DNA of 52,432 nt from an uncultured Rikenellaceae bacterium (GTDB taxonomy: Bacteria > Bacteroidota > Bacteroidia > Bacteroidales > VadinHA17), in the NCBI GenBank assembly GCA_964481765.1, contig CAYZVJ010000004.1, forward strand, positions 1 through 52,432. Direction: 5' to 3'. The notes under the pieces were generated by a model. That model was not told the origin of the DNA, made no database searches, and worked only from the letters and a program-made list of their open reading frames with translations. Both the position numbers and the translations under genes were made by a program. This document shows positions 4,222 through 51,249 of this stretch, one piece after another; positions within the stretch are counted from its first letter, which is position 1, and each line of letters opens with the position of its first letter.

Positions 4222-4222
4222 C

Positions 4223-4585
4223 CTAATGTTTCCCGTCTCCGTCCCTGTAAAGGCAGCATGCAGGCAGCGTGTTGTATACTTCGTCTTTTGCCTTTACTTT
4301 TTCGGTATCATGTCCGGCTTCGGCTACTGCTTTGTGCAGATCGTCCAGGGTTACCTTGTCGATGCGGTAGATGACTTTCAATGTATCGGTCATCTTATCC
4401 CATTCAACAAACTTCACCCCTTTCATAAGGGCGGCATTTTCAATGCGCTCCTTGCACATGTTGCAATTGCCTTTGACAACAAATTTTTCCGTTACAATCT
4501 TTTTATCCTTGTCCTGCGCCGATACATCCATTATAGAAAATACCAGGGCAATAAATATCGTTATACTATATATGCTTGTTTTCAT
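4223..4585 (-). CDS. Exported heavy-metal-associated (HMA) domain protein
   Basis: I prefer the internal start MKTSIYSITIFIALVFSIMDVSAQ (signal peptide) over the ORF-track start at 4627. HMA-type CxxC metal site in VVKGNCNMCKERIENA, plus a C-terminal PACC motif. Confidence 0.8.
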   Translation of the reverse strand: MKTSIYSITIFIALVFSIMDVSAQDKDKKIVTEKFVVKGNCNMCKERIENAALMKGVKFVEWDKMTDTLKVIYRIDKVTLDDLHKAVAEAGHDTEKVKAKDEVYNTLPACCLYRDGDGKH

Positions 4586-4668
4586 TTTGATTTGTATTGG
4601 GTTAATAATAAAATACACCTCTCCCAACCGGCAATTACCGGTGAATCATAATTTAGAATGCATTTTTA

Positions 4669-5115
4669 CTAACCGTAAAAAGTAAGCGTACAATGGAGTA
4701 GCCACAAGGGTTGTGGGTTGGGTGGGGGTAGATCATAAAACCTGCGATTCTCGGCTGAATCATCGTCTTCCGATTCGGAACCGTGTACGGACGGATTTAA
4801 AACATGATCCTTCCCTGGAGGGGAATTCGTGGCTGTATTTATGGTAATCTGTTTATCCTCCAAATACTGTATTGAATAATGTTCATTGGAGCAGCACTCG
4901 CCTGTATTCTCCAATGAGCATGTTTTTTCAGGCAGCTCATGATTACAGCATTCCCGGATTCCCGACACCTCATGACAGCAGCAATCTTCAACAGACGGAA
5001 TGATTCCTATGGATACAATATCTCCCTTACAGAAATGTACATTAACGGGCACACCCATTAATGCAATCATGTATAAAAAAGAGAGTCCTGTGGCGATAAG
5101 CTGTTTCACAATCAT
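4669..5115 (-). CDS. Cys-rich membrane-anchored protein, resembling the Bacteroidota HYC_CC_PP family
   Basis: 148 aa. N-terminal TM segment (LIATGLSFLYMIALMGVPV) followed by HFC, CCCHE, ECCNHE, ECCSNEH and a C-terminal PPPNP. It sits directly upstream of the HMA and TonB-receptor genes on the same strand. The family name is from memory, not a search. Confidence 0.6.
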   Translation of the reverse strand: MIVKQLIATGLSFLYMIALMGVPVNVHFCKGDIVSIGIIPSVEDCCCHEVSGIRECCNHELPEKTCSLENTGECCSNEHYSIQYLEDKQITINTATNSPPGKDHVLNPSVHGSESEDDDSAENRRFYDLPPPNPQPLWLLHCTLTFYG

Positions 5116-5366
5116 TCAATTTTCGGATCGAATATAATGATTCTCCAGAAGGTAAGATCGAATTAATTTGGATGTTATTTATACTGTTATACAGAAAATA
5201 TGCCGGATTTTTCAGGGAGATTAAAATCAAGGGATCTCCCCAAGCACTTTGGAATTAACGAAGAATTGCTGTAAATTGGTTAAATAAACCAAACAGCGAC
5301 AACGCATATAAGGGATATAAACGCAATGCGTTTATCCGCTAGCTTTGGCAACAATAAATTTTATAC

Positions 5367-27540: not shown

Positions 27541-27765
27541 ACGGACTTCAATGGCTAACGGTAACGGAACAAGAATTACTCTAAACATGCCAGGACAATA
27601 CCCGGTACGGGTGGTGTTGAGACACCCATAAAAATAAGAAAAAAATTGTTTTTGTCATTTTTATTTCTTTCCATTTATACAACAAAATAACATAAAGTGA
27701 CGTGATTTTGTTCACTCCCACCGTAAAAATAGTGTCTAAATAAGGGATGTCGGATTATGGAAGGA

Positions 27766-28050
27766 TTACCTGACAAAAAGGAGGTAAAGAAAGCTTGCAA
27801 GGGCTATTACTGCGATAATGATGATGATTACTGTTTTCCTGGTCTCGGTTTTTACGCCCTTTTCACTTTCAGTTTCCCGGTTTTTACTTTCCAGCGCTGC
27901 ACCAATACTCACACCAATACCTGCTCCAATAGCAATCCCAATGGCTACCTGATCCATGGCGATGCCGATGGCAATCCCACAGACCATCCCAATGGCAATG
28001 CCGATTCCCATTCCTGTACCCTTCCGGATATTATGGTCATTCTGCTGCAT
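27766..28050 (-). CDS. Small glycine-zipper membrane protein
   Basis: 94 aa. GxxxG-type repeats GMGIGIAIGMVCGIAIGIAMDQVAIGIAIGAGIGVSIGAAL, a charged linker, then a second TM (VIIIIIAVIALASFLYLLF). The mirror plus-strand ORF is low-complexity. Confidence 0.6.
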   Translation of the reverse strand: MQQNDHNIRKGTGMGIGIAIGMVCGIAIGIAMDQVAIGIAIGAGIGVSIGAALESKNRETESEKGVKTETRKTVIIIIIAVIALASFLYLLFVR

Positions 28051-28256
28051 GGATCCAGAACAATTAAATCATTTTAAAGGTAGGATAAAATCTTTGAATA
28101 GAAAAACAGACCCGTTACACAAAAAAAGTCAGTTATTGTTGTGAAAATTAGAAAATATCATTTACCATTGTCCAAGGTCCCGAAGGGATTCCTTCGGAGC
28201 TTTGGAGGTTCGGAGAAATCCCGATTAATTGAAAGTACCATTTTTTACAGATTTAC

Positions 28257-30539: not shown

Positions 30540-30611
30540 AAATAAAAAGTTTCTTTGGTTTAGTAAAATTTAAACTGATAAAGATCCTTTTCAGACTATG
30601 GAAAATAAAAA

Positions 30612-30633
30612 ACCCGGAGTATCTCCGGGTTTT
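30612..30633. terminator. Bidirectional-looking intrinsic terminator
   Basis: ACCCGGAG-tat-CTCCGGGT hairpin (8 bp), flanked by an A-run upstream (30605-30612) and TTTT downstream (30630-33). It lies 30 nt downstream of the small minus-strand ORF stop at 30663. Confidence 0.6.
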
Positions 30634-30662
30634 GAGCATATTATAATGATCAGAAGGGTAAA

Positions 30663-30884
30663 TCAGGCATTCATTAGTCTTCTGATCTTCAGTACAGAGA
30701 TTTCCCTGTAGATGTTTTCGATCTCCTGATCGATCTGTTCCAGTGTAGTTTGTATCTCTTCTGATTTTTTATCCACCTTCTCCGGTCCGTTGCAAGGAGT
30801 AGTGGAACTCAACGAACGTTTCAGGTTTTCCAATTCATTCAGGTGGATCTCCTGGTTTTGTATCAATGTATCCAGACTTTCCAT
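30663..30884 (-). CDS. Small hypothetical coiled-coil protein
   Basis: 73 aa with heptad-like acidic sequence. An in-frame stop lies about 25 codons upstream, with no alternative start codon in that stretch, so this ATG is the only start. Followed by the hairpin terminator at 30612-30633. No family recognised. Confidence 0.4.
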   Translation of the reverse strand: MESLDTLIQNQEIHLNELENLKRSLSSTTPCNGPEKVDKKSEEIQTTLEQIDQEIENIYREISVLKIRRLMNA

Positions 30885-31111
30885 CGTTTTCAGTTTTTTG
30901 GAGACAGGATTGGTACCTTCTCCCGAAATGGTTTGATAAACCTGCTTCTTGTTATTCTTCTCTATGTATAAAGACGTTTAAAGAAGTAAACCGTTACAAG
31001 AAATGAAAAAAAATTGAGGTTTTTTTTAATAAAATGTTAAAGAATCTTAAATGAAGCGATATTTTCATCAAGAATTGTCCACCATAGTTTTATGTTTTAT
31101 GTTTTATTTCT

Positions 31112-38370: not shown

Positions 38371-38466
38371 GGTAAATTGTTTTTGGTTATTGATTATCTA
38401 TTGATTGTTTCTATTGAGGAAATAAAGGTAGTCAAAAAAAAGATTGAACCGACCCCATTACGGCAA

Positions 38467-38838
38467 TTATCGTAACGTCTCAAACCCAAAAGAATCATCC
38501 TCAAAAACCAGCCTGAAGTATTCATCTTCAAGATCAACATACCCCTGGTCAAAACAGAAGCAGTAGGTTTTCCCCTTTTTTGTTGTGTAGGAGTGTGTGT
38601 GAAAGGTAAAAATAAAGCCCCTGGCAATCAGTTCATCCCTGTGGACTTTTTCCGCCCCTTCCATATTCAATTCACTCAGGATACGCCTGTTTCTTCGTAA
38701 AACATTCTGAACATTCCGTACGAACTTTTCATTACCCCGGTTCATCCGGTTGTGGTAATTGTTCCTGCAGAGATCAGAACAGAACTTTTTGTCAGACCTC
38801 CCTTTTATCGGTTTACCACAGTCAAGACAGGTATTCAT
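38467..38838 (-). CDS. Zn-ribbon (DUF2116-like) small protein
   Basis: 123 aa. CLDCGKPIKGRSDKKFCSDLCRNNYHN zinc-ribbon at the N-terminus, a basic helix, then a small beta-rich C-terminal domain. Confidence 0.65.
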   Translation of the reverse strand: MNTCLDCGKPIKGRSDKKFCSDLCRNNYHNRMNRGNEKFVRNVQNVLRRNRRILSELNMEGAEKVHRDELIARGFIFTFHTHSYTTKKGKTYCFCFDQGYVDLEDEYFRLVFEDDSFGFETLR

Positions 38839-38870
38839 CCGGTATGATTGTTTCCTTAAATATACAAATA

Positions 38871-38930
38871 ATCGTTTATAAACGTTTACAAACGTTTACA
38901 AACGTATATAAACGACTACAAACGTTTAAT
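38871..38930. repeat. Six tandem, helically phased 10-bp repeats (consensus AACGTTTACA)
   Basis: Read directly: ATCGTTTATA AACGTTTACA AACGTTTACA AACGTATATA AACGACTACA AACGTTTAAT. Located in the divergent intergenic region between the Zn-ribbon gene (start 38838) and ssb (start 39037). Confidence 0.85.
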
Positions 38931-39036
38931 CACCGACTAATTGCATATTGGTGTTGTTACTTTGATGATGATATGAAGAATATCCGTGTCGGACGGACGC
39001 TATTCTTCACAAGTATTAATCAAAAAACTTAACATC

Positions 39037-39402
39037 ATGAACAATTTAAGAAACAGGGTAAACCTGATCGGCAACCTCGGGACAGATCCGGAGGTAAAAA
39101 AACTGGAAAGTGGAAGAATGCTGGCGAAGTTTCCACTGGCAACGTCAGAAAATTACAAGAATGCGGAAGGGCAAAAAATCTCAGAAACCCAGTGGCACAA
39201 TCTTGTTGCCTGGGGTACTACTGCTACATTTGTGGAAAAATACCTGAAAAAAGGCAATGAAATTGCTGTGGAAGGGAAACTTTCACACCGATCCTATGAG
39301 GACAAAGATGGAATCCGGAAGTACTTTACAGAGATCATTGTCAATGAAGTGTTGATCCTGAGGACCGACAACAAGACTGATCAGGATACAGTGGAATCGT
39401 GA
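39037..39402 (+). CDS. ssb: Single-stranded DNA-binding protein, short form without the canonical acidic C-terminal tip
   Basis: The internal start MNNLRNRVNLIGNLGTDPEVK is the typical SSB N-terminus. OB-fold motifs (ETQWHNLVAWG, VEGKLSHRSYEDKDG..RKYFTEIIVNE). Ends ...TDQDTVES rather than a D-D-[IL]-P-F tail. Confidence 0.9.
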   Translation: MNNLRNRVNLIGNLGTDPEVKKLESGRMLAKFPLATSENYKNAEGQKISETQWHNLVAWGTTATFVEKYLKKGNEIAVEGKLSHRSYEDKDGIRKYFTEIIVNEVLILRTDNKTDQDTVES

Positions 39403-39430
39403 TTGTATGGTTTTTTTCTCTCATGCAGGA

Positions 39431-39460
39431 GGGGCCGGTTCAGATCTTCGAACCGGCCCC
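39431..39460. terminator. Strong stem-loop between the convergent ssb and ATPase genes
   Basis: GGGGCCGGTTC (39431-39441) pairs with GAACCGGCCCC (39450-39460), an 11-bp GC-rich stem with an 8-nt loop. A T-rich stretch (TTCTGCTT) follows on the plus strand. Confidence 0.7.
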
Positions 39461-39483
39461 TTCTGCTTAAGTTTATGGTATCA

Positions 39484-45341: not shown

Positions 45342-46685
45342 TTAATCCGGTATTTGGAACACTTTCAGGTTCAGGGGTTGAATCGGATTCGGAAGGTCCA
45401 GGTCAAATAGATCCTGCTCTGGCCACTGTTCCATGCTGCCGAATACTTTTCTCATGGTTCGGTCAATCTCGCCAGGAAACTTCGATGATTTCCAGGTACT
45501 CGAATTCAACAGAACAACCCATGTAAATCCATCATCCTGGTGTTTGATCATGGCAGAGGTGCCTGCAAAAGATCCGGTTCTCCACCAGGTACCGTTGGCA
45601 AGTGTTGTCTTCCAGCCGACAGGTGCATAACCATAACCCGGATCGGTCATGAGTTTAACCTTTTCCGGTGTAATGATATCTGTTCTGCTTGAATCCCCAT
45701 CGATTGCCAGGGTAAGCTTCAGCAGATCGGGTGCTGCAGCAATCCAGCTCCCAGCTGCACCCAGGGCTTCAACATCGTTCCCTCCATAGCACCGCATGAC
45801 CATTTCATCCGGATCATAAATTGACTTGACACGTTCTGATCCGGTGGGTTCATAGTACCTGACTTCCAATGATGCTTTCTGCCATGGCATGTTCCCACCC
45901 AACTGCATATCGTATACCCCAATCGGATTCAGAATACTGTTTTTTACATATTCCTCATACGGTTGTTGTGTAATTTCTTCAATGACCAGTCCCAGAATAC
46001 TGTATCCCAGATTCGAATAACTTACGTAACTGCCCGGGGTGAAGTGCAGTTTTTTGCTAAGGGCAAACTGCACAATGGTTTTTGTATCAGGCGGTGAAGG
46101 AATATTCATATAGGTTGCTATTGCATGGGGAATGAACATTTGATCGCCCCATCTTCTGGTCCATCCTCCGGAATGAGTCAGAAGGTGTCGAACAGTAATA
46201 TCGAAGGCACGTGTATCCCGCGGGTTCAGGTAGATGGAATCATGCAGTATAGCACCCTCCCCGAAGACTTTTTGATCCAGGGTTATCCTGCCTTCCTCTA
46301 CCAGGTTCATGATAGCAACGGCTGTAATCAGCTTGGAGACACTGGCTATGCGAAACAGGTGAAAGGGCTGCACATCGATCCCTTCTTCCCTATCGGCTTT
46401 TCCGTATCCCCGCGCAAAAACAAGCTTTCCATCTTTTGCAATCGCCACGGAGGCACCCGCAATATCCCACCGTTTTATAAATGAATTGAAAATCTTATCT
46501 ATTGGAACGAATGTTTCTGATGCACAAAGATCATTGCGTAGGCGCACGCGAAGATGATCCGGATCAGTAGGTTCCCTGTCTGTAGATGCAGAATGGGGAT
46601 CGGTAAAACCGAAGGAGGTGACCAGCAGCAGTAAAAAAGTCAGAGGTATCCGCCAGTATAATTTTAATGTTGTCACAAAATACAA
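45342..46685 (-). CDS. Exported serine hydrolase, beta-lactamase family
   Basis: 447 aa. N-terminal hydrophobic leader. SxxK motif SVSKLIT. YSNLGY (Y-x-N). Class C-like fold. Confidence 0.85.
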   Translation of the reverse strand: MYFVTTLKLYWRIPLTFLLLLVTSFGFTDPHSASTDREPTDPDHLRVRLRNDLCASETFVPIDKIFNSFIKRWDIAGASVAIAKDGKLVFARGYGKADREEGIDVQPFHLFRIASVSKLITAVAIMNLVEEGRITLDQKVFGEGAILHDSIYLNPRDTRAFDITVRHLLTHSGGWTRRWGDQMFIPHAIATYMNIPSPPDTKTIVQFALSKKLHFTPGSYVSYSNLGYSILGLVIEEITQQPYEEYVKNSILNPIGVYDMQLGGNMPWQKASLEVRYYEPTGSERVKSIYDPDEMVMRCYGGNDVEALGAAGSWIAAAPDLLKLTLAIDGDSSRTDIITPEKVKLMTDPGYGYAPVGWKTTLANGTWWRTGSFAGTSAMIKHQDDGFTWVVLLNSSTWKSSKFPGEIDRTMRKVFGSMEQWPEQDLFDLDLPNPIQPLNLKVFQIPD

Positions 46686-46727
46686 GTTAACAGTTTGTAT
46701 AACAGACTATTAAAAAATATCAAATTG

Positions 46728-46735
46728 CAAATTTA
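46728..46735 (-). promoter_or_regulatory. Candidate Bacteroidota -7 promoter box for the 45342-46685 hydrolase gene
   Basis: The minus strand reads TAAATTTG (= TAnnTTTG) about 45 nt upstream of the ATG at 46685. Confidence 0.4.
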
Positions 46736-46944
46736 ATGGAATTCTACAGGATGTGATCAAAAATTGCAATAAAAATTCAACAGAAGAAGAAAGTTTTTAA
46801 CAGATCCGGGATGATCAGTTGGATTGCGTTGACAGGGGGAATTCTGTTGTCCTGTTTTCGGGACCGGAGTGGAGTTATGCCGGCAGGCTGTATCGGGTTG
46901 GTTATGTCTATTGGAAAGAAGTTACTCGTGGAAAAAGAAGGGTA

Positions 46945-47375
46945 TAAAAACACGAAGAGGGAATTTTTCTACGAAAAATTCCCTCTTCCACTTCTTAAGA
47001 CCCGTAGGTCAGAATCAGTGCCAAGCTACTGTTATTATGGCTTCTGCGTTCCAATTCAACCCTTTCGGGTATCGTCTTCCGGCGTCTGAATTCAATATTG
47101 CTTCGCTTTTGCAAGCGTCGCGATTCTGAACCCTGGCTCTTTAAAGGCCCCTTAAACACCTGGTTCTTACGAACCCGACCCTTACGAGTTGAACCTGTTC
47201 CCACCGGCCTGTTGCCAGGCTGGCTTTCGCGGGTTCGCCTTTTGAAACTCACCCTGGCAGGCACCTGTTCCGAAGAACGGATGACCTGAGGATGGGTCCT
47301 GGAGTGTTTCAACTTTTGCAAGCATCCACAATCCGTTTCCGCGTTTCTCAAGCTTGCCTTTTATCCCTCACTTGG
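46945..47375 (-). ncRNA. Candidate structured non-coding RNA of about 430 nt, class unrecognised
   Basis: Bounded by a TAnnTTTG box (47388-47381) and the terminator (46954-46988). The interior contains five hairpins closed by GNRA loops on the minus strand only (47059-47070 GAAA, 47104-47117 GCAA, 47162-47175 GUAA, 47178-47189 GUAA, 47207-47220 GCAA) plus a UUCG hairpin (47264-47280). The only ORF is a 118-aa Arg/Lys/Ser-rich reading frame. The ends are approximate. Confidence 0.55.
46954..46988 (-). terminator. Rho-independent terminator of the candidate ncRNA
   Basis: Perfect 15-bp stem (GAAGAGGGAATTTTT / AAAAATTCCCTCTTC) with a 5-nt loop. On the minus strand it is followed by GTGTTTTTAT. 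There is no T-run on the plus-strand side. Confidence 0.75.
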
Positions 47376-47380
47376 TATAA

Positions 47381-47388
47381 CAAATATA
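47381..47388 (-). promoter_or_regulatory. Candidate Bacteroidota -7 promoter box for the ncRNA candidate
   Basis: The minus strand reads TATATTTG (TAnnTTTG), with a TTG element 20 nt further upstream (aaagTTGcaccggttaccatctagtaaTATATTTG). Confidence 0.45.
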
Positions 47389-47646
47389 TTACTAGATGGT
47401 AACCGGTGCAACTTTTTTTAACTTTCCTTGTCAACATAGTTTCCACACCCTTTATTAACAAATGTTCATAAATGGAACCGCATAAGAATCAAGTAAAAAG
47501 GAACAATTTGAGAACCATTAAGATAGGAAAACAACCGTTTACTCAGGTGCAAGCGACTTGGTTTTATTCTATAATTTTACGGCAGATCTTGAAACAATTC
47601 TTTATTATATATACTATATTTACCGGTCAATATTCATCACCGTATC

Positions 47647-49164
47647 ATGAAGATTAAAAAAGTCCTCATTGCAAATCGTGGGGAGATTGCAGTCCGGATC
47701 ATTCGATCCTGTCGTGAATTAGGGATCACGACAGTAGCGGTTTACTCCGAAGCTGACCGAACCGCATTGCATGTCAGGTATGCTGATGAGGCCTATTATA
47801 TTGGTCCCTCCCCTTCCAATGAAAGCTACCTGGTGATGGATAATATCATCCAGGTGGCAAAGGAATCAAAATCGGATGCGATACATCCCGGATACGGTTT
47901 TCTTTCCGAAAATGCTGAGTTCTCGGACAGGGTAAAGAAAGCGGGTATTATTTTCATAGGCCCCAGCGCCTATTCAATTCAAACGATGGGTGATAAGATC
48001 AGTGCCCGAAAAAGCATGATAAACGCCAACATTCCTGTCGTACCAGGCACAAAGGAAAACCTTACGGATAATTCGTCATACAAAAACATCATTACCGAAA
48101 TCGGATTGCCAGTCATGATCAAGGCCTCGGCAGGTGGTGGGGGAAAGGGAATGCGCCTGGTAAGGGAAGAGGGTGAACTGGCGGCTGCAATCAGGGCTGC
48201 CAGGTCGGAAGCACTCGCCGCTTTTGGTAATGATTCAATCTATATCGAAAAATACATTGAATCGCCCCATCACATTGAATTTCAAATTCTGGCAGACCGG
48301 CATGGGAATATCATCCACCTGTGTGAACGGGAGTGCTCCGTTCAAAGGAGGCATCAAAAAGTGGTGGAAGAGACCCCGTCTCCGCTGATGACAGCTGAAT
48401 TACGGGATGAAATGGGAAAACATGCTATCGCTGCTGCAAAAGCGGTCAATTATGAAGGGGCCGGAACCATTGAATTTCTGGTAGACAACCGGCTTAACTA
48501 TTACTTCCTTGAAATGAACACCAGGCTTCAGGTAGAACACCCTGTTACAGAAAGGGTAACGGGAATAGACCTGGTGAAAGAGCAACTCTATATCGCCGAT
48601 GGACAACCATTGCGAATTGCACAGGAAGAGGTTTCTCAAAATGGACATGCCATAGAATGTCGGATTTATGCCGAAGATCCGGAAAACAATTTCATGCCCA
48701 GTCCCGGTATGGTAAGCAAAATCATTGAACCCATGGGAACCGGTGTGCGCTGCGATGGCTACATCTATCAGGGATATACTATCCCGATCTATTATGACCC
48801 ATTGATCTCAAAGCTGATCACATGGGGTATCACACGGGAAGAAGCAATCAGCAGAATGAAAAGAGCATTGGAAGAATACTATATCCTCGGCGTGAAAACC
48901 TCGAAAAATTTCCTGGTCAGAATCATGGAAACTCCCGATTTTATTACCGGTAAGTACGATACACATTTCATCGAAAAAAACAATGATTTTCTCTTTTCAC
49001 CCTGCAGGAGTGCGCGTGAAAGTGAACAGTTTGAAGGTCTGGCAGCACTTACTGCGCTCCTTGAATATAACACGTCCCTACTGAACGGTAACATCCTGCC
49101 TGGACCCAATGGAAGAAACCAGTGGAAAGAATTTGGCCGGAAAAAAAGCATGATCAGGCTATAA
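47647..49164 (+). CDS. accC: Biotin carboxylase subunit of a biotin-dependent acyl-CoA carboxylase
   Basis: 505 aa. MKIKKVLIANRGEIAVRIIR, GYGFLSEN, ATP-grasp GGGGKGMR, EMNTRLQVEHPVTE: textbook AccC motifs. Confidence 0.95.
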   Translation: MKIKKVLIANRGEIAVRIIRSCRELGITTVAVYSEADRTALHVRYADEAYYIGPSPSNESYLVMDNIIQVAKESKSDAIHPGYGFLSENAEFSDRVKKAGIIFIGPSAYSIQTMGDKISARKSMINANIPVVPGTKENLTDNSSYKNIITEIGLPVMIKASAGGGGKGMRLVREEGELAAAIRAARSEALAAFGNDSIYIEKYIESPHHIEFQILADRHGNIIHLCERECSVQRRHQKVVEETPSPLMTAELRDEMGKHAIAAAKAVNYEGAGTIEFLVDNRLNYYFLEMNTRLQVEHPVTERVTGIDLVKEQLYIADGQPLRIAQEEVSQNGHAIECRIYAEDPENNFMPSPGMVSKIIEPMGTGVRCDGYIYQGYTIPIYYDPLISKLITWGITREEAISRMKRALEEYYILGVKTSKNFLVRIMETPDFITGKYDTHFIEKNNDFLFSPCRSARESEQFEGLAALTALLEYNTSLLNGNILPGPNGRNQWKEFGRKKSMIRL

Positions 49165-49182
49165 AATCCAATATAATCCCTT

Positions 49183-49695
49183 TTGATGCGTATGGAAATT
49201 CTGCTAAACGATAAAATCATACTGGTCGATATCCTGAAAAAGGATGGAAGCAACATGGATGTTTCGATCAACGGAAAGATCCTGAAAGTCAACGTAATAA
49301 AGGTTGATAACGGAATTTATTCCATTCTTCACAATGGAAAATCATATGACATGGAGGTTGTGCCCGGTAGTGATAAGCGGAAATATTCTGTTGCACACGG
49401 ATGTTCCACTTTCGATGTCGAGATCAATGATTTGGAATCAAAATACATGAAGAACCGGTTAAAGGGCCAGATGGAACACGACCAGGATTCCATCTCCTCA
49501 CCCATGCCGGGTAAGGTGGTGAAAATCCCCGTTGATGTTGGGGATGAAATCGAGCCCGGTCAAACCCTCATTATCATCTCAGCCATGAAAATGGAGAGCG
49601 AGTATAAAGCAAAACGGTCGGGTAAGATCAAAGAGATCCTGGCCACCGAGGGTGATACCATTGAAGGGAATCAACCATTAATACTAATTGAATAA
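49183..49695 (+). CDS. Biotin carboxyl carrier protein (biotin/lipoyl attachment domain)
   Basis: 170 aa. C-terminal biotinyl domain with SPMPGKVVKI and the AMKME biotinylation motif. The N-terminal region of about 90 aa is of unclear fold. Confidence 0.85.
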   Translation: MMRMEILLNDKIILVDILKKDGSNMDVSINGKILKVNVIKVDNGIYSILHNGKSYDMEVVPGSDKRKYSVAHGCSTFDVEINDLESKYMKNRLKGQMEHDQDSISSPMPGKVVKIPVDVGDEIEPGQTLIIISAMKMESEYKAKRSGKIKEILATEGDTIEGNQPLILIE

Positions 49696-49710
49696 TCAGA
49701 TCCCGGTATT

Positions 49711-51249
49711 ATGTCAACACTGGAAGAAAAATTCAAGGATTTTGAAGAACGGGTTAATGCTGCTGAACTGGGCGGAGGAGTTGAAAGAATTGAAAAGCAG
49801 CACAAAGCCGGAAAAAAAACTGCACGCGAACGGATCAATGATCTTCTTGATCCCGGTACTTTTATTGAAACCGATCGAATGGCGGTACACAAATGTACTG
49901 ATTTTGATATGGATAAAAAGAAAATACCGGGTGATGGGATCGTCACCGGATATGGGAAAATTGATGGACGGCTGGTCTATATTTTCGCCCAGGATTTCAC
50001 TGTTTTCGGCGGAACTTTATCCAGAACCAATGCAGATAAAGTCGTTAAGCTCATGGATCTGGCTATGAGAATGGGCGCCCCGGTCATCGGTTTAAACGAC
50101 TCTGGCGGTGCAAGAATACAGGAAGGCGTTCAGAGCCTTGCCGGATACGCAGATATCTTTTACCGAAATGTGATGAGTTCCGGTGTTATTCCTCAAATAT
50201 CTGCCATTCTCGGTCCATGCGCCGGGGGAGCGGTATACTCTCCTGCCCTGACAGATTTTATCTTTATGGTCAAAGAGACCAGTTACATGTTTGTGACGGG
50301 GCCCGATGTGATCAAAACCGTTACACACGAAGATGTAACAAAAGAGGAGCTGGGAGGTGCCATGACCCACAACTCGAAAAGTGGTGTGGCCCACTTCATT
50401 GGTGAAGATGATGAACAAACGATGATGATGATCAGGGAGTTGCTTAGCTTCCTTCCATCCAACAACATGGAGGATCCACCGGTCAAACCCTCTCTTGATG
50501 ACATCAACAGGGTGGATGAAAACCTGCAGACCATCGTGCCGGTTGATCCCAACAAGCCCTACGATATAAAAGAGATCATCACAACGGTTGCGGATGACCA
50601 TAATTTTTTTGAGGTTATGTCACATTATGCAGAAAACATGGTGATCGGTTTTATCAGGCTCAATGGCAAAACGATCGGCATTGTGGCAAACCAACCGGCT
50701 CACCAGGCAGGAGTGCTGGATATCAATGCTTCGGTAAAAGGTGCACGCTTTGTCCGATTCTGCGACGCCTTCTCTATACCCCTGGTCACCTTTGAAGATG
50801 TGCCCGGCTTTCTGCCCGGAACCATACAGGAATTTGGAGGTATCATACGCCACGGAGCAAAATTGCTGTATGCCTTCTCAGAAGCCACCGTGCCGAAAAT
50901 TACGATTATCACCCGGAAAGCGTATGGAGGAGCATACTGTGTCATGGCCAGCAAACACATTGGTGCCGATGTGAATTTTGCCTATCCTACTGCTGAAATA
51001 GCAGTGATGGGACCTGATGGAGCAGTCAATATCCTGCATCGAAGTGTTGTTGATAATGAAGAGAAAACACGGAAAGTGGAAGAATACAAGTCGAGTTTTG
51101 CAAATCCCTACAAAGCTGCAGAACTGGGATACATTGACGAGATCATCCTGCCCAAATATACGCGGAAAAGATTGATCATGGCACTGGAAATGGCGCAAAA
51201 TAAAAGTGCCTCAAATCCTCCAAAAAAACACGGTAATATTCCATTGTAA
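49711..51249 (+). CDS. Acyl-CoA carboxylase carboxyltransferase (beta) subunit; propionyl-CoA carboxylase beta / methylmalonyl-CoA carboxyltransferase 12S-like
   Basis: 512 aa. Strong resemblance throughout to PccB-type proteins ([60 protein letters not shown]). Confidence 0.95.

Follow-up and report, generated by a model that had tools for sequence, protein, structure and literature searches.

What occupies the interval between a beta-lactamase-family hydrolase gene and accC in the genome of an uncultured Rikenellaceae bacterium? In the 52,432-nt stretch of DNA analyzed here (contig CAYZVJ010000004.1, positions 1 to 52,432; hereafter “the window”), this 961-nt gap (46686-47646) extends from the hydrolase start at 46685 to the accC start at 47647 and contains only short overlapping open reading frames (ORFs). 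A previous sequence-only reading of the window had proposed that the minus strand of the gap encodes an unclassified, GNRA-rich structured RNA delimited by a dedicated promoter and terminator. Homologs, covariation, a broken ORF, and the lack of any match in Rfam all support this proposal, and we show that positions 47376-46945 (minus strand) form a non-coding, highly structured RNA gene, predicted to be transcribed independently and present as a single copy in the window. The GNRA-rich middle does exist, but it is the least conserved part of the molecule; the invariant part is an internal loop where the two ends meet, which had been overlooked.

Relatives of the neighboring AccC protein place the window in the Bacteroidales, the closest being an uncultured ‘Rikenellaceae’ metagenome-assembled genome (MAG; 91% AccC identity), and 80 genome loci were retrieved around such relatives. 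An nhmmer search with the RNA yielded matches in 6 of these 80 loci (L002, L003, L006, L008, L025, and L043; labels of the form L0xx or L1xx designate the retrieved genome loci, metagenome contigs, and IMG/VR contigs used as relatives), and the RNA lies away from accC in two of the six matched genomes. The resulting alignment displayed two strongly conserved blocks, one at the extreme 5′ end and one near the 3′ end. The 3′ block was recast as a pattern (AATAACWGYARCNNGGCRC-N10-CTAYGG) for a metagenome search, which recovered 113 metagenome contigs and 2 IMG/VR contigs, so that the element proposed from a single sequence has >110 relatives across the nhmmer and pattern searches. Full-length RNAs could be extracted in 96 cases, and clustering reduced these to 80 representatives at an identity of 97% and to 21 clusters when the cutoff was 75%. 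Judged by contig names alone, most sources were marine, salt-marsh, estuarine, and hypersaline-lake sediments. The RNA family is thus widespread in sediment Bacteroidota (Bacteroidales-like MAGs), being common in those of anoxic marine, salt-marsh, and hypersaline-lake sediments, showing that at least one conserved RNA gene is overlooked when genomes of environmental Bacteroidota are annotated.

Every complete member shares a common frame composed of the promoter, a closing helix (P1), an internal loop, a second helix (P2), a variable domain, a third helix (P3), and the terminator. In the window RNA (all features on the minus strand), the 6 bp of P1 are formed by CCAAGU (47370-47375) and GCUUGG (47021-47026), and P2 by GGC (47356-47358) and GCC (47039-47041), while P3 is a hairpin of 14+4+14 nt with a C(UACG)G cap (46989-47020) that directly abuts P1 without a linker. 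Between P1 and P2 lies a near-invariant internal loop of 11 × 12 nt (GAGNGAUAAAA / AUAAUAACWGUA in the family). Its 5′ strand, J1/2, reads GAGGGAUAAAA in the window (47359-47369; family RAGNGAUAAMR), and its 3′ strand, J2/1, reads AUAAUAACAGUA (47027-47038; family AUAAUAACWGUA) and is kept in the nhmmer matches. Members range from 243 nt to >1.7 kb in length, with a P2 insert of about 110 to >1,600 nt. Apart from the largest RNAs, they fall into classes of 243, 308-352, 437-452 (including the window), 545-553, 591, and 658 nt, the smallest being two RNAs of 243 nt including the terminator, with ~110 nt inside P2 (L140 764-1006 and L156 12346-12588, both on the minus strand).

We evaluated this core through an alignment (A3) of 77 distinct sequences joined in register, in which pairs were counted for P1, P2, and P3. 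Standard pairs occupied 88.4% of the core helix cells, versus 19.6-39.2% when partners were slid by 1-3 columns, and 219 cells displayed changes on both sides of a pair, versus 78.7 ± 8.6 in shuffles (0/500 reached 219). P1 was paired in 97.8% of cells, and double changes converted A-U to G-C at two of its positions (CCAAG/CUUGG, CCGAG/CUCGG, CCAGG/CCUGG). P2 was paired in 94.8% of cells and showed both-side changes in 4/4 tested pairs, its variants including GGC/GCC, GAC/GUC, AGC/GUU, GGUUG/CAAUC, and GGCUG/CAGCC. The 32-nt register of P3 was identical in 77/77 sequences, with 11 of its 14 pairs changed on both sides and a cap that is either C(UACG)G or C(UAUG)G across the family. Throughout these helices, G-U pairs fit the minus strand only. 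In J1/2, by comparison, 7 of 11 positions were invariant across the 77 sequences, and this invariance spans lineages with dissimilar inner domains that differ ~15-fold in length. The strongest constraint on the RNA is therefore found in a 23-nt internal loop clamped by P1 and P2 and located beside the rigid P3. We reasoned that this loop is the functional part of the molecule, since J1/2 remains invariant while the inner domain is replaced over a ~15-fold length range. P3 contains a purine-purine internal loop at a conserved position (A3 columns 55/78 and 56/77), which in the window is G·A/A·G, with the potential for tandem sheared pairs, and lies beside an invariant hairpin base of C-G, R-U, and C-G; this element could represent a second recognition element.

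The boundaries of the RNA correspond to those of a stand-alone Bacteroidota transcription unit: the spacing between the −7 box and the 5′ end is constant, and the 3′ end is marked by an intrinsic terminator. The promoter proposed in the sequence-only reading is present, including the −7 box TATATTTG (47381-47388, minus strand; consensus TAnnTTTG) and, 20 nt upstream, a candidate −33-like TTG element read from the sequence (47409-47411). The box is kept as TAnnTTT[G/A] across the family, and in 94 of 95 members its end is separated from the first C of P1 by 5-6 nt. Transcription is therefore expected to start at the base of P1, so that the 5′ end of the RNA probably lies at about A47376, just ahead of P1, and its 3′ end within the U-tract, for a predicted transcript of ~430 nt (46945-47376, minus strand) based on promoter spacing, the terminator, folding energy, and homologs. 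The contig ends of the transcript-like contigs of giant relatives (see below) display the same end motifs as the window RNA. The terminator consists, as proposed, of a hairpin (46954-46988) and a T-rich tail (GTGTTTTTAT, 46944-46953), but a terminator scan counted 16 pairs (6 of them G-C) with a 3-nt loop instead of 15 pairs. This stem covaries among relatives, and a T-run follows the last hairpin in 90 of 91 family members. The RNA further stands out from its surroundings by its GC content (51% vs 33-38% in the flanks) and by a minimum free energy (MFE) of −156 kcal/mol vs −125.9 ± 6.1 in shuffles (z = −4.97).

The interior of P2 (47042-47355, minus strand) is a variable, ornate, multi-helix domain containing hairpins capped by GNRA or UUCG tetraloops. 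When stems of ≥4 bp closed by a GNRA loop were counted, seven were found on the minus strand and one on the plus strand, whereas 2,000 dinucleotide shuffles averaged 0.5 (0/2000 reached 7); one of the seven is spurious as it sits within the terminator stem. All six hairpins listed in the sequence-only reading can be found, i.e., ACCC-GAAA-GGGT (47070-47059), CGCTT-GCAA-AAGCG (47117-47104), GGTTC-GTAA-GAACC (47175-47162, with a conserved GGUUC/GAACC stem), ACTC-GTAA-GGGT (47189-47178), GCCTG-GCAA-CAGGC (47220-47207), and a UUCG-capped hairpin (47280-47264). Five of these are part of the fold derived below, but the ACUC/GGGU hairpin is missing from it, and its GNRA loop (ACUC-GUAA-GGGU) is not kept among relatives, being UUAA in L002 and ACAA in L003. 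A long-range pairing previously suggested between 47237-47230 and 47177-47170 had to be rejected: L003 (3 mismatches) and L085 disrupt it without compensatory changes, and it competes with the conserved GGUUC/GAACC hairpin.

For the window-type RNAs (the window subclade together with L121 and L158, 8 sequences), an RNAalifold consensus included 117 pairs, with 93.9% of cells paired. Changes on both sides were observed for 34 pairs, versus 14.2 ± 2.7 in shuffles (0/500) and 4-9 with slid partners, the latter control being flattered by a structure derived from the same alignment on which it is scored. Covariation well above shuffles and slid controls was hence obtained for P1, P2, and P3 as well as for the window-type fold. 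Between subclades, the P2 insert could not be aligned, and even the L084-type RNAs, equal in length to that of the window, displayed no detectable similarity there. Family-wide, this domain is purine-rich (A 34%, G 26%), and the strongest over-representation is seen for words that form stable tetraloop hairpins, C(UUCG)G, G(GCAA)C, C(GCAA)G, and C(GAAA)G. Another word, GGUUCUUUAAAUGA / CCUUUAAAG, is shared by several subclades that are otherwise unrelated, among them that of the window (about 47143-47151).

The upper end of the size range is represented by giant RNAs. Eight contigs carried ≥1 kb upstream of the 3′ block without a 5′ block within that distance, and six of these, giant members of 1.2-1.7 kb (L088 1-1248, L119 1-1265, L154 1-1215, L171 1-1202, L166 1-1503, and L089 1-1691) displayed no stop-free stretch >188 amino acids (aa) on either strand. 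Five of these six contigs begin inside the 5′ loop motif (...GGAUAAAAGG...), and all six end at the 3′ end of the RNA, at positions from P3 to ~12 nt beyond the terminator (L119). The 1,691-nt contig L089 ends within P3 and does not reach the 5′ motif, and its RNA must thus exceed 1.7 kb. Three giants (L088, L154, and L119) share 70-72% identity from end to end, with mismatches lacking 3-periodicity (110/91/113, 124/127/123, and 113/122/132) and gaps whose lengths are hardly ever divisible by three. Their consensus fold reached −268 kcal/mol vs −123 ± 10 in column shuffles, with 57 compensatory pairs vs 15.6 in shuffles (maximum 22). Since both contig ends coincide with the RNA ends in five independent samples, whereas the smaller-class RNAs occur at random offsets within their contigs, the giant contigs of 1.2-1.5 kb are probably assembled transcripts, and the family RNA is apparently abundant as a transcript. 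At 1.2 to >1.7 kb, these giants would be among the largest structured non-ribosomal bacterial RNAs known. A BLAST comparison of L089 and L166 yielded off-diagonal matches (e.g., L089 811-883 with L166 288-336, 490-544, and 868-923), which suggests that the giant variable domains may include repeated structural modules.

Is the gene already known under another name? The sequence-only reading had found no known class by eye, and this was borne out by comparison to Rfam 15 (4,227 covariance models), which gave no match at the gathering score anywhere in the 52-kb window. When the threshold was relaxed to E ≤ 10 for the 1-kb region, the only matches were to microRNA (miRNA), small nucleolar RNA (snoRNA), and ctRNA models, all located on the terminator hairpin. 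No Rfam match was obtained on the RNA in 9 other members, nor in 8 giant or viral contigs. ARAGORN detected no tRNA or transfer-messenger RNA (tmRNA) in the window, and there was no match to the Rfam tmRNA models, to RNase P (RF00010 or RF00011, even at E ≤ 10), to the 6S and 6S-Flavo models, to the ribozyme, riboswitch, and T-box models (even at E ≤ 10), or to the covariance models of OLE, GOLLD, ROOL, HEARO, raiA, and other named large non-coding RNAs (ncRNAs). Full-text literature searches returned no description of such an RNA, which is not proof of absence.

The genes around the RNA were examined by clustering 456 flanking ORFs. The resulting clusters were lineage-specific, i.e., the flanking genes differ between lineages, and these are often convergent with the RNA. 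We had considered a conserved neighbor as a candidate functional partner, but the lineage-specific nature of the clusters led us to reject this idea, and no partner was found in this way. The operon encoding biotin carboxylase, BCCP, and carboxyltransferase (acc) adjoins the RNA in 8 of 21 subclades, but neither the operon end that faces the RNA nor the relative orientation is constant: it is divergent and upstream in the window (47647-51249, plus strand), L025, L158, and L006, and convergent and downstream in L145 and L195, with L156 also among the acc-linked loci. This adjacency could be a functional link or a remnant of ancestral synteny. Several subclades have genes for a beta-lactamase-family hydrolase and an SRAP peptidase (both from Pfam) 3′ of the RNA. 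The question of synteny, raised from the window alone, receives a partial answer: only some lineages keep the acc operon or the hydrolase next to the RNA. In the largest clade (45 contigs), the neighbors, named by reading their sequences, are a sodium:solute symporter, flotillin/NfeD, ClpS, and a SusC-like protein, and other subclades have DnaG, UvrD, or MsrB. In the window, a separate TAAATTTG box (46735-46728, minus strand) lies ~40 nt upstream of the hydrolase start codon (46685), suggesting a dedicated promoter for the hydrolase gene, located 3′ of the RNA terminator. Overall, the RNA is chromosomal, with housekeeping neighbors and no prophage context.

Taking these observations into account, we propose, with a probability of about 0.5, that the gene encodes a stable RNA acting in trans, in which the invariant internal loop docks a conserved partner and the ornate domain serves as an expandable scaffold. 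An action in trans rather than in cis is favored because the flanking genes vary and are often convergent, and because the hydrolase has its own TAAATTTG box. The RNA would operate as a stable, abundant molecule, made long-lived by the burial of its 5′ end in P1 and by its many helices closed with UUCG or GNRA loops. Its internal loop would fold into a non-Watson-Crick three-dimensional module representing the functional site that docks the partner, while the ornate domain could expand freely, holding and protecting the core. Among the possible partners a protein is the most likely, which would make the RNA part of a ribonucleoprotein (RNP), although we place this tentative suggestion somewhat below even odds overall. 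It is conceivable, if on balance doubtful, that the family represents a new bacterial RNA class whose invariant loop has a new biochemical function (as an RNP, a ribozyme, or in docking tRNA or another RNA), as opposed to an ordinary antisense RNA.

Several points weigh against the proposed trans-acting, partner-docking RNA. Present evidence does not distinguish between protein docking, ligand binding, catalysis, and base-pairing, and no convincing Watson-Crick tertiary covariation was observed within the internal loop in A3, where correlations track phylogeny. Within the metagenome set, ascertainment contributes to the invariance of J2/1 and of some P1 and P3 positions, because several 3′-side columns were fixed by the search pattern; J1/2 and both free P1 positions lie outside this pattern, and the pattern-independent nhmmer matches (n = 6) show equal conservation of both blocks. 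The RNA was matched in 6 of 80 related genomes, a count that covers only the loci around accC, and no constant protein-coding neighbor emerged from the 456 clustered flanking ORFs. The transcript status of the giants is deduced from contig ends only, and an earlier description of the family could exist in work covered neither by Rfam 15 nor by searchable papers.

Alternative functions must then be weighed against the same evidence. A base-pairing regulatory small RNA (sRNA), in which a loop strand such as CAUAAUAAC, complementary to GUUAUUAUG-type start regions, would serve as the seed for pairing with mRNAs and the remainder would stabilize the molecule, is compatible with the independent promoter and terminator, with invariant A/U-rich single-stranded stretches (one of which includes an anti-AUG CAU), and with a variable gene context, as is usual for trans-acting sRNAs. 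We nevertheless consider it unlikely, as both strands of the loop are invariant and clamped by two covarying helices, which points to a three-dimensional module instead of a free seed, and as a size of 0.45-1.7 kb with >100 conserved base pairs far exceeds that of known sRNAs. The combination of a near-invariant non-Watson-Crick core with a fast-evolving, tetraloop-rich periphery is also found in large ribozymes, so that the loop might be the active site of a ribozyme or the pocket of a ligand-binding RNA, buttressed by peripheral domains. The helix-loop-helix sequence loosely resembles loop B of the hairpin ribozyme, a likeness we take as a lead only. However, a wholly swappable periphery with a ~15-fold size range is unlike the scaffolds that position an active site precisely, and since no Rfam ribozyme or riboswitch model matched even at E ≤ 10 and no candidate substrate or cleavage site was found, this explanation appears decidedly unlikely.

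An RNA with paired ends, an 11 × 12 nt bubble flanked by helices, and an independent, apparently abundant transcript could in principle be a lineage-specific functional analog of 6S RNA, the bubble between two helices trapping the RNA polymerase holoenzyme. The lack of a 6S or 6S-Flavo match, the short P1 (only 6 bp), a branched rather than rod-like inner domain of up to >1.6 kb, and a bubble devoid of any TAnnTTTG-like element make this highly improbable. Little can be said for a cis-acting leader or attenuator of the downstream hydrolase (45342-46685), with the terminator as its expression platform, beyond the same-strand order of RNA and hydrolase in 13 loci of several subclades and the strong terminator between the two. 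This explanation, whose chances we consider very slim, is largely refuted by the convergent or unrelated genes found downstream in most subclades (symporter, carboxyltransferase, DnaG), a convergent downstream gene making a cis-regulatory role such as that of a riboswitch or leader unlikely; in addition, the hydrolase start is ~260 nt away from the terminator, with a separate TAAATTTG box in the intervening stretch, and no alternative anti-terminator pairing is evident. Finally, the locus has a negligible probability of being a protein-coding gene or a chance structure. A 118-aa ORF (46995-47351) does exist on the strand of the RNA, but it carries two stops in L002 (95% identical), shows a frameshift and numerous stops in L003 (80% identical), and no longer exists in L121 or L158, while mismatches to L003 are spread over the three codon positions without bias (26/27/30). 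This pattern refutes the coding interpretation, so that the conserved protein ORF that would have spoken against an RNA gene is absent, and a chance structure is refuted by >110 homologs with compensatory changes.

New classes of large folded bacterial RNAs are seldom found, and RNase P, tmRNA, OLE, HEARO/IscB omega-RNA, and ROOL/GOLLD each opened new biochemistry. As an ornate RNA without an Rfam 15 family, the one described here may be regarded as new, and it can be grouped loosely with the orphan RNAs OLE, GOLLD, ROOL, and raiA. Among these, OLE RNA (RF01071; ornate, large, extremophilic) works as an RNP with dedicated proteins (PMC3413148), the arrangement favored here for the family RNA. 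Both OLE and the family RNA are large, ornate, tetraloop-rich ncRNAs whose role cannot be read from their sequence, and both are abundant in metatranscriptomes, in the case of the family RNA apparently so. They share no sequence or structure match, however, and OLE is found in Firmicutes rather than Bacteroidota, lies in an operon beside the gene of its partner (oapA) while the family RNA is monocistronic without a constant neighbor, and is fairly constant in size, unlike a family that extends from 243 nt to >1.7 kb. GOLLD and ROOL (0.6-0.8 kb, often phage-associated) are similarly very large, intricately folded RNAs of obscure function that came from comparative genomics, and GOLLD combines a conserved half with a variable one. 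In contrast to these, the family RNA has no Rfam match and is chromosomal, single-copy, and without prophage context, and its only viral matches are RNA-virus contigs that are probably chimeric; its largest members are longer than GOLLD.

By architectural analogy only, the RNA is reminiscent of RNase P and telomerase RNA, in which the ends pair and an invariant unpaired core is surrounded by lineage-variable helices, and whose expansion segments are analogous to the scaffold role proposed for the ornate domain. It differs from RNase P in showing no match and, in the inspection by eye of the sequence-only reading, no P4 hallmarks, and in a far greater size range within a single phylum. With 6S RNA, it shares an independent and apparently abundant transcript, paired ends, and a conserved internal bubble, but 6S RNA is a rod of ~185 nt with a long closing stem, whereas the family RNA has a 6-bp P1 and a branched inner domain of 110 to >1,600 nt. 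The combination of an invariant core joining the ends with a hyper-expandable insert, along with the size range, is peculiar to this family. It amounts to a natural experiment, in which an invariant 23-nt loop was held while the rest was free to grow from ~110 to >1,600 nt, and which thereby pinpoints nucleotides of interest. The 243-nt minimal members (L140 and L156) are likewise a natural construct for structural or biochemical work.

One lead regarding the loop comes from the double T-loop (IDTM) module, which docks the tRNA elbow and carries the signature AGNNA...UGNNA, with an A closing each T-loop (PMC3664808). The invariant AGNGA of J1/2 fits the AGNNA half of this signature, and it resembles the AG bulge of T-boxes (AGCGA/AGAGA; PMC11404447). 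The only candidate for the second pentamer, WGUAR, fits just part of the sequences, as one third of them have A at its first position and half have G at its last, a base that behaves as if paired with the P1 U; furthermore, the platform pairs of a double T-loop are not Watson-Crick in the family RNA. With half of the signature fitting, we keep the double T-loop as a lead and not as a finding.

The two IMG/VR matches raised the possibility that the RNA gene is a prophage integration site, an idea that we withdrew once the large ORF of L082 (1350-9527) was recognized as a 2,726-aa polyprotein with RNA-helicase, RdRP_1, and CRPV-capsid domains (Pfam), which identify L082 as a picorna-like RNA virus. 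L083 displayed weak matches to RNA-dependent RNA polymerase (RdRP). Both contigs terminate in a sense-oriented 3′ fragment of the family RNA (9655-9866 in L082). These virus-ncRNA junctions are most likely assembly or reverse-transcription chimeras from an RNA-derived library in which the family RNA was an abundant transcript; a true capture of the fragment into a viral 3′ untranslated region is possible.

Regarding the gap itself, the absence of a credible coding sequence noted in the sequence-only reading stands, but its length is not unique in the window. Other gaps of 0.6-1.1 kb between long ORFs are found at 4222-5366, 27589-28256, 30540-31111, and 38371-39483. The Rfam 15 scan of the window gave no match in these, and two of them contain ORFs of 120-150 aa.

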